Source of the DNA: a virus
Lineage: Duplodnaviria > Caudoviricetes
IMG/VR virus record: IMGVR_UViG_3300037479_000621
Location: 1 to 55,959 of that record
Length of the DNA: 55,959 nt
Reading direction: 5' to 3' (one strand)
The notes beneath the pieces are model-generated. The model saw nothing but the letters and a program-made list of their open reading frames with translations. It was not told where the DNA came from and did no database searches. How positions within the stretch are numbered: position 1 is the stretch's first letter; every line of letters begins with the position of its first letter. Of this stretch, positions 44,316-46,468 are shown in pieces. A program made the position numbers and the translations under genes.

Positions 44316-44656
44316 GTTTCTTTGCCGCCTACGTCGTCCCCGGCTCCGGCGAGCCGACCGACGGCGATTCCGTCGCCACGTCGCTCGGGTGGAAGCGGTG
44401 GGGCGACTGGGTCCTGACGCACGCCGACCACTTCCCCGGGGCCGCGCACCTCGCACAAGAGGGCTGGCTGGAGGGCGCGGAGTCGTTCGCGGAACTGGAA
44501 CACGAACTCGGGAAACTGTTGCACGAGGCCCCCGACCCCGACCGCTCTGCCGTGACCGCGCAGGTGCTGGCCGCGCTCAAGAGCCGACCGCCCGGAGCGA
44601 CGGCGCTCGTGGTGACGGACGGCGAACCCGGCGACGAAACGGACGGTGACCTGTGA
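44312..44656 (+). CDS. Small acidic protein, candidate immunity protein
   Basis: ATGA overlap directly after the nuclease-like C-terminus. Confidence 0.55.
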   Translation: MSFFAAYVVPGSGEPTDGDSVATSLGWKRWGDWVLTHADHFPGAAHLAQEGWLEGAESFAELEHELGKLLHEAPDPDRSAVTAQVLAALKSRPPGATALVVTDGEPGDETDGDL

Positions 44657-46221
44657 CCGACGCCCCCGAGTTGACCGACGACCAGATTCGCGCCGCCGCG
44701 GCGGACCTGCTCCGGGCACTGTACGCGGAGTGCGGGGCGGACTGCGGCGAGGAGATGCCGGAACTGGAGTCGCCCGACGGCGGCGAAGCGGTGGAAGGTG
44801 GTGACGTGCGGAAGGCGTTTGACGAGTCGAAGCACCCGCGCGACGACCACGGGCAGTTCATCGACAAGGGCGAGTTGCACGCCGCGAAGAGTGACCCCGC
44901 GAAGGCGGATGAACTGCGGAAGCGGGTGACAGACCCGGGGGAGCGGGAGAAGTTGGAGAAGCATCTGGGGGGCGAACAGGCCGCGAAGGAAAATCCGCCA
45001 ACAACTGTTGACACGCCAACGGGTGTTGGCGATAATGCCTCCACGCTACCCGAAGTGGGTAGCGAAGAAGGAGGCGGAACGATGGGATTTACGCGACCCC
45101 CCGCGAAGGAGCGAAAGAACGACAAGGGCGACGCGTTCGCCCCCCACGACGACCCGGCCTCGGTGAAGGGCGGTTTCGTCGCCAAGCGGGACAGGGTTCA
45201 CGAGGCGACGCTCGCGGCGGACGGCTCGGCCAAGGCCGAAGCGGAGCCGACGCAGACGTACCTCCGGCACGGGATGATCGCCGTCAAGGACGGCGTTCCC
45301 CGCGTCTACGCGGCGGTGACGAAGAACGGCAAGCCCGACGTGCTGTTCGTCCAGTCCGAGGGCGCGGCCGACTTCCGCGACGCGGTGAACACGCTCCGGG
45401 CCGCCGGACTTGACCCGGTCGAACACCTGCCCCACGCCGCGGCCCACACTATTGGCACCGGCACGCGGTCGATGCGATCCCGCGTCCACGAGTATCTGAA
45501 GGATGCCGGGGTCGAGCCGCCCGCCCCGGCCAAGCCGACGCCGACCGACCGCGAGGCACTTAAAGTGGCGGCGAGCGCCGGGGACGACACCGCCAAACTC
45601 GCCCACGCCGACGCGACCCTGGAAGACCCCCGCGCGACCCCGAAGGAGCGGCACGAAGCGTTCAAGGCGGGGGTCTGGCAGCCCGCCATCGACCGCCGGG
45701 ACGCCGCGTCCCGCAAGCTCGAATCTCTGAAGCGGCGTGCCGCCGGCGTCTGGGATAACGACTCCGGACAGTACAACGTCGAACCGGAGGCGATCGACCC
45801 CGAGGAGATGGCCGCGGCCACGGCCGAGCTGGAGGCGGCGCAAGCGGCGCTGAAGCCGATTCAGGATGAAAAGGCCCGGCTGTTCCAGGAATGGGTCGCG
45901 TCCGCCGGGAAGAAGGTGGACTCGGGAGCTGCGAAGCCCGCCGCGGTGACGATCCGCGGCAACACCTACGCCGTCCGCGACCAGCTGGCGAAAATCCCCG
46001 GCGCGAAGTACGACCAGCGCCGCAAGGCCTGGACCGTCCCGGCCGAACATGCCGACCGTGCGAAGCAGATCGTGGCTGCGGCCCCCAAGACCGACACCCA
46101 GGCCGAGCTACTGAAACTGAGTGACGCCGAACTGGCCGAGCGGGGACTCGTCCGCACCTCCGGTCCGCGCGGCCCCTATGTCCGCCGCGGCACGCCGGAG
46201 GAACTCAATGACCATCTCTAA
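44653..46221 (+). CDS. Tagged head-associated fusion protein (internal start 45082)
   Basis: VRKAFDESKHPRDDHGQF tag; C-terminal RGNTYAVRDQL..IPGAKYDQRRKAWTV domain. Confidence 0.7.
   Translation: MTDAPELTDDQIRAAAADLLRALYAECGADCGEEMPELESPDGGEAVEGGDVRKAFDESKHPRDDHGQFIDKGELHAAKSDPAKADELRKRVTDPGEREKLEKHLGGEQAAKENPPTTVDTPTGVGDNASTLPEVGSEEGGGTMGFTRPPAKERKNDKGDAFAPHDDPASVKGGFVAKRDRVHEATLAADGSAKAEAEPTQTYLRHGMIAVKDGVPRVYAAVTKNGKPDVLFVQSEGAADFRDAVNTLRAAGLDPVEHLPHAAAHTIGTGTRSMRSRVHEYLKDAGVEPPAPAKPTPTDREALKVAASAGDDTAKLAHADATLEDPRATPKERHEAFKAGVWQPAIDRRDAASRKLESLKRRAAGVWDNDSGQYNVEPEAIDPEEMAAATAELEAAQAALKPIQDEKARLFQEWVASAGKKVDSGAAKPAAVTIRGNTYAVRDQLAKIPGAKYDQRRKAWTVPAEHADRAKQIVAAAPKTDTQAELLKLSDAELAERGLVRTSGPRGPYVRRGTPEELNDHL
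45008..45036 (+). promoter_or_regulatory. Internal sigma70 promoter TTGACA-17-GATAAT with palindromic operator
   Basis: Spacer cgccaac-gggt-gttggcg; AAGGAGG and ATG at 45082. Confidence 0.7.
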
Positions 46222-46420
46222 GAAGTCGTTCGGCGCGCGCCTCCAGGCGCTCCGCGAGAAGGCGCACTTGTCGCGCGAACAACTCGCTACGGCAGCGGGA
46301 ATGAACCGCGAGGCCGTGCGACTCTACGAACTCGGCGAACGCCGGCCGACGTGGGACGCGGTGCAAGCGCTCGCGAAGGCGCTGGGCGTAACCACGGACA
46401 CCTTCCGCGACCGTGTCTGA
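46208..46420 (+). CDS. XRE-family HTH regulator
   Basis: FGARLQALREKAHLSREQLA...YELGERRP...LAKALGV. Confidence 0.9.
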   Translation: MTISKKSFGARLQALREKAHLSREQLATAAGMNREAVRLYELGERRPTWDAVQALAKALGVTTDTFRDRV

Positions 46421-46424
46421 CACC

Positions 46425-46436
46425 TTACGCGCCTAA
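46425..46436 (-). repeat. Dispersed 12-bp motif (perfect)
   Basis: TTACGCGCCTAA. Confidence 0.9.
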
Positions 46437-46441
46437 CTCAC

Positions 46442-46468
46442 AACACCCCGGAATCTCCGGGGTGTTTT
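46442..46468 (+). terminator. Rho-independent terminator
   Basis: aacaccccgga-atc-tccggggtgtt-tt. Confidence 0.75.

Follow-up and report, generated by a model that had tools for sequence, protein, structure and literature searches.

Long and short proteins that share one reading frame and a common C terminus are encoded in the head-gene clusters of phages lambda (C/Nu3) and Mu (I/Z). They arise from internal translation starts on one transcript and are not known to involve an internal promoter, operators, or a dedicated repressor. In Salmonella, promoters and a start codon within the long open reading frame (ORF) of Rhs, a delivered multidomain protein, allow the C-terminal toxin and its immunity gene to be expressed as a toxin-antitoxin pair, the toxin then being a short cytoplasmic form (Starsta et al. 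2020, PMC7043789). This is the nearest described case that we found for the locus reported here. The locus lies in a 55,959-nucleotide stretch of tailed-phage DNA (Duplodnaviria, Caudoviricetes; IMG/VR record IMGVR_UViG_3300037479_000621, positions 1 to 55,959), which we refer to at its full length as the window. A long open frame of 522 residues (44653..46221, + strand, GTG start) joins a tag unit containing a conserved "HPRD" module, a translated regulatory stretch, and a 379-residue protein that we call the cargo. From the arrangement of predicted signals we conclude that the cargo and the XRE-family gene behind it probably form a self-regulated, moron-like cassette that follows the HPRD module in frame. 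Two isoforms of the cargo, one short and one long and tagged, are plausible products of this arrangement.

The locus resembles the lambda and Mu gene pairs in its in-frame nesting and differs from them in adding a predicted internal promoter, predicted operators, and an XRE gene. Type II toxin-antitoxin operons in which the toxin gene comes first and the antitoxin is an XRE protein are those of the HigBA/MqsRA type. The window pair is like these operons, and like restriction-modification control genes, in its overlap of 14 nucleotides, its small XRE gene in second place, and its palindromic operator-like sequences over the promoter, an arrangement that suggests autoregulation. Unlike the toxin of a type II system, its first gene encodes a multidomain product of 379 residues without a match to any toxin family. 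The concept of the moron is reportedly due to Hendrix/Juhala. A terminator amid the head operon is described as a moron trait in Cumby et al. (2012, PMC3594210). Like the morons treated there, the window unit has its own predicted promoter and terminator among late structural genes and occurs in only some relatives. Unlike them, it lacks a boundary to the upstream gene, has putative regulatory signals that are read as protein, and does not deviate in base composition.

With Rhs the locus shares a C-terminal part and a downstream small gene whose expression signals, predicted in the case of the window, lie inside a long multidomain ORF. In Rhs, however, normal coding sequence upstream of a conserved motif contains the promoters, and translation begins at a weak CTG codon (PMC7043789), whereas the window signals are near-consensus, occupy a non-coding-like stretch, and have a gene for a DNA-binding XRE protein downstream. 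MuF toxins and polyvalent proteins, as outlined in Jamet et al. (2017, PMC5576092) and Iyer et al. (2017, PMC5512222), combine a conserved head-module part with exchangeable C-terminal domains, have a small ORF behind them, and are believed to undergo packaging and injection. The window cargo likewise forms the C terminus of a 2305-residue portal-like protein in a relative. The locus differs from these systems in two respects: the window proteins gave no match to a MuF or toxin family, and the conserved element is an unnamed module of about 55 residues. Term searches gave no occurrence of "promoter" in PMC5576092 and none of "HPR" in PMC5512222. Two things are unusual about the locus: an intact-looking regulatory region forms a linker read in frame, and one cargo occurs free, tag-fused, and embedded.

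The regulatory stretch comprises 35 codons (residues 109-143; 105 nucleotides, 44977..45081, + strand) and contains the putative operators, promoter, and Shine-Dalgarno sequence. The guanine-plus-cytosine (GC) content at third codon positions (GC3) is 0.87 in the tag unit (44653-44976), 0.49 in the regulatory stretch, and again 0.87 in the cargo (45082-46221). The overall GC content of the stretch is 0.59, and that of its core is 0.54, compared with 0.69-0.70 on either side. This break in composition coincides with the end of module homology, where 16 of 38 local alignments stop at residues 105-109 ("HLGGE"). Because the two boundaries coincide, residues 109-143 look like a translated former intergenic region. 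Stop codons are absent from the stretch in the actual frame and in the +1 frame, and three are present in the +2 frame. With no stop codon between module and cassette, the presumptive regulatory DNA is read as a 35-residue linker.

An earlier note on this DNA had placed a promoter with a palindromic spacer, an AAGGAGG sequence, and an in-frame ATG at 45082 within the coding sequence 44653-46221, and our analysis recovered every one of these elements. The predicted sigma-70-type promoter (TTGACA-17-GATAAT, 45008-45036, + strand; -35 hexamer at 45008-45013, -10 hexamer at 45031-45036) agrees with the consensus at 11 of 12 positions. The pattern TTGACA-N17-KATAAT with at most one mismatch matches once on the two strands of the 56-kb window, where 0.03 matches are expected, and only 3 of 100 shuffled windows contained any match. 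The promoter spacer is filled by an operator-like palindrome without mismatches (O2, CGCCAAC-GGGT-GTTGGCG, 45014-45031) that touches the -10 hexamer. The note was right about this palindrome but had overlooked an abutting copy (O1, CGCCAAC-AACT-GTTGACA, 44996-45013), the right arm of which holds the -35 hexamer. The promoter is thereby overlain by two abutting 18-bp palindromes, which are the sole copies of the palindrome core with no mismatch or one mismatch. The AAGGAGG sequence (45068-45074) is separated by 7 nucleotides from the in-frame ATG at 45082, which encodes residue 144 (45068..45084 in all, + strand). It is the strongest Shine-Dalgarno sequence among 36 starts compared, several of the others having GGAG or GAGG. 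Scans with operator and -10 patterns returned 4 viral and 44 genome loci, none of which carries a relative of the cargo or of the XRE gene.

Promoter, Shine-Dalgarno sequence, and ATG are also bracketed by a 19-nucleotide inverted repeat (44966-44984 with 45128-45146, 84% complementary), which might enclose the internal start in a read-through mRNA. The repeat is one of 63 such pairs listed and was set aside as likely to have arisen by chance.

The cargo is followed by an XRE-family helix-turn-helix gene of 70 codons (46208..46420, + strand), which has GGAGG before its start and overlaps the end of the cargo coding sequence. Its product matches the Pfam families HTH_31 (1.7e-15, 57.5 bits, cut-off 27) and HTH_3 (3.7e-13, 49.7 bits, cut-off 23), as well as the PADLOC models for CapH and for restriction-modification control proteins. 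CapH and restriction-modification control proteins are small autoregulators. An intrinsic-terminator-like hairpin (46442..46466, + strand; 11 pairs, 7 of them G-C, a loop of 3, and a T-rich tail) separates the XRE gene from the genes for capsid assembly and has the longest stem among 12 terminator-like sites listed for 37000-50000. The gene and the hairpin agree with the XRE gene and the terminator that the note had placed downstream. Taken together, the elements have the layout of a self-repressed operon, with two dimer-sized palindromes, a 5' leader of about 38 nucleotides, a strong ribosome site, the XRE gene in second place, and a terminator. The hairpin is nested in inverted repeats (46421-46437 with 46528-46544, 17 nucleotides, 94% complementary; and 46398-46411 with 46511-46524) and is common to the XRE unit and a convergent reverse ORF of 102 residues (46529-46837).

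The junction between tag and cassette is genuine DNA and not an assembly error, because an independent sample has the identical sequence. A 1413-nucleotide contig from a second sample and study spans 44423-45835 with 0 differences and 0 gaps. A 2258-nucleotide contig from a possible source sample spans 44422-46679. The 90% cluster of the 522-residue protein has two member records (Logan and JGI/IMG), which are identical over all 522 residues from the GTG at 44653.

The cargo proper (379 residues, 45082..46221, + strand) lies in frame behind the regulatory stretch. A profile search of 1.84 billion representatives yielded 98 matches to the cargo family at E <= 1e-3, and the full-length cargo was found in three clusters only: P0002, the 522-residue protein of the window, and P0003. 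The note had proposed a search for homologs of 45082-46221 that lack the N-terminal module, and P0002 is such a homolog. It has 382 residues and 63% identity to the cargo, and its first residue aligns with Met-144 of the window protein (MFTRPQPKER versus MGFTRPPAKER). P0003 carries the cargo at residues 1936-2305 of 2305, behind a proline-rich linker. Over its N-terminal 360 residues, P0003 shares 38% identity (E 4e-64) with P0101, which matches the phrog_113 portal profile. The domains of P0003 are a portal-like N terminus, a 2',5' RNA ligase domain, and the cargo, an architecture of polyvalent type, whereas the window protein consists of tag and cargo alone. No cargo relatives of 665-2000 residues were found. 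Parts of the cargo also occur elsewhere: its N-terminal domain A in P0005 (1382 residues, with HPRD motifs) and P0007 (321 residues), and its C-terminal third in P0004 and P0006.

Cargo relatives were further sought in viral, genome, and metagenome contigs. In the only contig found, the linear record L003, the cargo gene is truncated at its 5' end by the edge of the contig; an overlapping XRE gene comes next, then the pre-capsid gene, and finally the capsid gene. Its XRE protein is 68% identical to that of the window, and no further piece of the cargo gene is present in the rest of the record. A closer relative of the window, L058 (TerL 61% and capsid 68.5% identity), has TerL, portal, a 572-residue tag protein (of which P0121 is a shorter gene call), and, after 42 nucleotides, the pre-capsid gene; it has neither the cargo nor the XRE gene. 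Fourteen viral loci that bear the tag (L054-L067) were searched, and none has a relative of the cargo or of the XRE gene at E <= 1e-4. Since L003 has the cargo-XRE pair and these other loci do not, the pair is best described as an accessory unit of a slot in the head-gene cluster. At the place where L058 carries other domains behind the tag module, the window has this pair. As for a moron, the pair is an addition relative to related phages, absent from L058 and present in L003, and a promoter and a terminator of its own are recognizable in the sequence.

The tag unit (residues 1-108, 44653..44976, + strand) consists of a pre-tag helix (DLLRALYAECG) and the HPRD module (FDESKHPRDDHGQF...KLEKHLGGE), of which the conserved part of about 55 residues is encoded by nucleotides 44818-44976. 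The consensus of the module is FDESKHPRDDHGRF...AAKSDPAKAEELRxRVTDPEQRKKLDxALGG. That the tag module is duplicated, as the note had claimed, was borne out by the neighboring gene, which encodes a 781-residue multidomain head-module protein (41970..44315, + strand) in which the long module spans residues 226-283 (42645-42818) and residues 63-82 (42156-42215) hold a short motif. The modules of the 522- and 781-residue proteins are identical at 36 of 77 positions (E 3e-17), and the short second copy is identical at 15 of 21. Residues 522-764 of the 781-residue protein match positions 1020-1270 of the phrog_113 "portal protein" profile (E 3.1e-43), a match of its C terminus to the tail of long portal-fusion profiles. 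A Pfam scan of the 781- and 522-residue proteins gave no family at E <= 0.01. Between their genes lies an ORF of 114 residues (44312..44656, + strand; GC3 0.86), which has GGAGG before its ATG and overlaps its neighbors by 4 nucleotides on both sides (ATGA upstream, GTGA downstream). Its product is 47% identical over 111 residues (E 1e-26) to residues 2-108 of P0120, an 883-residue tag-bearing protein. The same modules are therefore separate here and fused elsewhere.

The HPRD module was found in 31 longer proteins (P0099-P0129) at E <= 1e-3, their best local alignments to the query being 39-68% identical; 20 of these have one copy and 11 have two. It occurs in a short form, in which the motif is followed by Gly/Ser-rich sequence, and in a long form, in which the motif is followed by the conserved AAKSDPAKAEELRxRVTDPEQRKKLD segment, taken to be helical. 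A portal domain, from three different portal PHROGs, directly precedes the module in 9 of the 31 proteins (P0099-P0102, P0105, P0111, P0114, P0115, and P0123), and in four further module proteins the match is confined to the middle part of long portal-fusion profiles. Precomputed Pfam assignments among the module proteins include ADP-ribosyltransferase, 2',5' RNA ligase domain, and DUF2924. The module itself matched no Pfam or NCBIfam family in the proteins scanned, and tblastn against GenBank phages gave no match to the tag. The best score of an ESM Atlas search with the tag unit was 0.81, under the lead level, and a literature search for "HPRD" with portal and phage returned nothing relevant. 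The module keeps the company of head-module polyvalent proteins, and possible roles as a targeting tag, a site for proteolysis, a hinge, or a recombination seam all fit its sequence context. Its link to portal-fused giants fits a role in the virion and fits a linker, cleavage, or recombination role equally. One module protein, P0126, was considered as a tag-headed prohead protease or scaffold, which was unsupported by Pfam, by PHROGs, and by comparison with the pre-capsid gene of the window.

The proposed cassette would consist, in order, of tandem operators over a promoter, a ribosome site, the 379-residue cargo gene, the overlapping gene for a 70-residue XRE repressor, and a terminator. It would occupy a variable slot of the head-gene cluster between portal-side and capsid-assembly genes. 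In a lysogen, the internal promoter would give a short mRNA encoding the 379-residue cargo and the XRE protein. XRE dimers on O1 and O2 would block the -35 hexamer and the spacer, so that the unit would repress itself. Late transcripts would be read from 44653 by ribosomes arriving through coupling from the upstream ORF, to yield the 522-residue tagged form. Such coupling is plausible because the frame has the GTGA overlap with the 114-residue ORF, which is itself the N terminus of a tag protein elsewhere. Initiation at 45082 on the late transcript could contribute additional short form. The terminator lies in the middle of the head operon, and late transcription would therefore have to read through it or restart. 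The evidence comes from a single phage lineage in which relatives are scarce, and expression and function are inferred from it.

Several observations weigh against this interpretation. The predicted promoter is of the consensus sigma-70 type, a consensus that the presumed host phylum may not share. The palindrome core with up to 2 mismatches matches 3 times in the window versus 4.05 expected and is thus unenriched by count, and no further operator copy marks O1 and O2 as a recognized site. AAGGAGG, with 3 occurrences in the window versus 4.8 expected, is likewise unenriched on its own. Because neither the palindrome core nor AAGGAGG is enriched singly, the case for a regulatory region depends on the coincidence of the signals. 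The "standalone" homolog P0002 is a gene call on a contig of 1587 nucleotides. Domain A is without a family or fold match and so gives no hint that the cargo needs regulation or delivery. The cargo has a GC content of 0.70 and the tag one of 0.69, so that the deviating composition expected of a moron is absent and the cassette bears no compositional trace of recent import. Two of three frames are open across the regulatory stretch, so that an open, in-frame join had a prior of about 1/3 by chance. The note had described the locus as the capture of a self-regulated moron. The non-coding character of the promoter stretch and the presence of the pair in L003 but not in L058 support this description, but with 3-4 sequences the order of the free, tag-fused, and embedded states cannot be rooted, and the direction of the event that it implies does not follow from them.

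The foremost alternative is that the fusion is accidental. The cassette would have landed or recombined in a tag gene, replacing the downstream domains; the short cargo and the XRE protein would be the sole working products, and the 108-residue tag would be a young remnant. We regard this as the less probable account, although one with a distinct chance of being correct. In its favor, an open in-frame join over the 105 nucleotides has a prior of about 1/3, and the conserved "GETDLGRT..." region, which follows the module in L058 and in many tag proteins, is missing from the window protein. The identity of the second sample over 44423-45835 also leaves no polymorphism that could reveal selection on the tag. 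An accident is harder to reconcile with a tag unit that retains the conserved module residues and a coding composition (GC3 0.87), and with the start-stop overlap of the frame with the upstream ORF; if the 114-residue ORF is translated, the fusion is therefore produced, whether useful or not. The same cargo is, moreover, covalently attached to a portal-like giant in P0003, and attachment of this cargo to head-module proteins is thus recurrent.

A broader version of the preferred reading assigns a general function to the module. The HPRD module would be a tailed-phage adaptor as well as a recombination seam; cargo joined to it would be borne in the capsid and injected; and polyvalent proteins would grow by in-frame capture of morons, with this locus as an intermediate that retains the promoter, operators, and ribosome site of the cassette in its linker, P0002 as the free state, and P0003 as the absorbed state. 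In this adaptor account, the extreme conservation of the module is what makes it a capture seam. We consider this generalization unlikely.

The reverse process, fission in progress, is very unlikely. Here a long polyvalent protein resembling P0003 would be ancestral, and its linker would have acquired a promoter, operators, and a ribosome site, by evolution or insertion, as a step toward release of the cargo. P0003 would then represent the fully integrated state, and the fusion of the 114-residue ORF in P0120 shows that gene boundaries at this locus are fluid. Domain A of P0002 is also nearer to that of P0003 than to the window copy, which means that the architecture shifts among close relatives in a direction that is unrooted. 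Fission would nevertheless require about 100 nucleotides of non-coding composition, near-perfect -35 and -10 hexamers, two palindromes, and a consensus Shine-Dalgarno sequence to arise jointly in a coding linker. In P0003 a proline-rich linker stands ahead of the cargo and a strict HPRD motif was not found, and the downstream XRE gene and terminator better suit an imported unit. Slightly less probable still is that the promoter- and operator-like sequences are inactive or otherwise used (for example as RNA or DNA structure), with the 522-residue protein as sole product and the XRE protein regulating something else: consensus matches are not function, and the palindrome core and AAGGAGG are unremarkable by count, but a unique promoter, overlying operators, a Shine-Dalgarno sequence with its ATG, and the composition break coincide within 90 nucleotides at the point where the homologous protein starts.

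The cargo, which we take as the first gene of a self-regulated cassette, appears to be built of four parts. Domain A (residues 1-145, 45082-45516) gave a confident AlphaFold model (pLDDT 92, pTM 0.87) with a β-sheet followed by three helices. Foldseek searches of domain A against the PDB and BFVD found nothing at E <= 0.001, and the best VIA Z was 3.3; on the basis of the model the domain may represent an undescribed fold. It is followed by a predicted coiled-coil hairpin (residues 182-282, 45625-45927), a small DUF5710-like domain (residues 289-332, 45946-46077), and a near-invariant tail (residues 343-379, 46108-46218). Fold searches with the model of the whole cargo returned only generic coiled-coil matches. 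Among 17 relatives from profile searches, 12 match DUF5710 (PF18974), 10 of them above the cut-off, and the window protein has no match at E <= 0.01; literature searches for "DUF5710" gave nothing relevant. The last 37 residues of the cargo, with the sequence LSDAELAERGLVRTSGPRGPYVRRGTPEELNDHL, are near-invariant in P0002, P0003, L003, P0004, and P0006. The overlap with the XRE gene, which covers only the last 14 nucleotides, accounts for little of this conservation. The same tail also ends P0012, a 195-residue protein otherwise without matches. The cargo matched no family, and no toxin family, in Pfam, PHROG, NCBIfam, and PADLOC, and tblastn against GenBank phages gave no match to it.

The window is an IMG/VR provirus with a CheckV completeness of 77 and a GC content of about 68%. 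Its left flank looks like planctomycete genome: the left third is host-like and contains a DUF1559/N-terminal-methylation gene (8560-9342), a family that we take to be typical of Planctomycetota. An ISL3 transposase gene (18089-19405) and a papain-family peptidase gene (15353-16129) also lie in this apparent host flank. An integrase gene (23165-24322) marks the end of the prophage, which includes RecT (27095-28204) and ThyX (34441-35328). No tRNA genes were found in the window, and host assignment through capsid relatives gave one uninformative 35% match, in a Mycobacterium metagenome-assembled genome. The head-gene cluster comprises TerL (37067-38485), portal (38747-40864), the genes described above, a pre-capsid gene without any family match (about 46922 to 48241), and the major capsid gene (48247-49473). 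The 102-residue reverse ORF that converges on the XRE unit (46529-46837, - strand) shows weak coding character (GC3 0.72) and matched no family, and no gene occupies this place in L003 or L058.

The gain of C-terminal domains by polyvalent or polymorphic head proteins has been known from comparative patterns alone. The locus described here shows one cargo in three states and offers a concrete seam for such gain, at the end of a very conserved module. The unnamed, widespread module and the confidently modeled domain without a structural neighbor are targets for experiment. If both isoforms are made, the lysogen would have a regulated cytoplasmic form of the cargo and the virion a tagged form, which would be a phage counterpart of the internal promoters found in Rhs.

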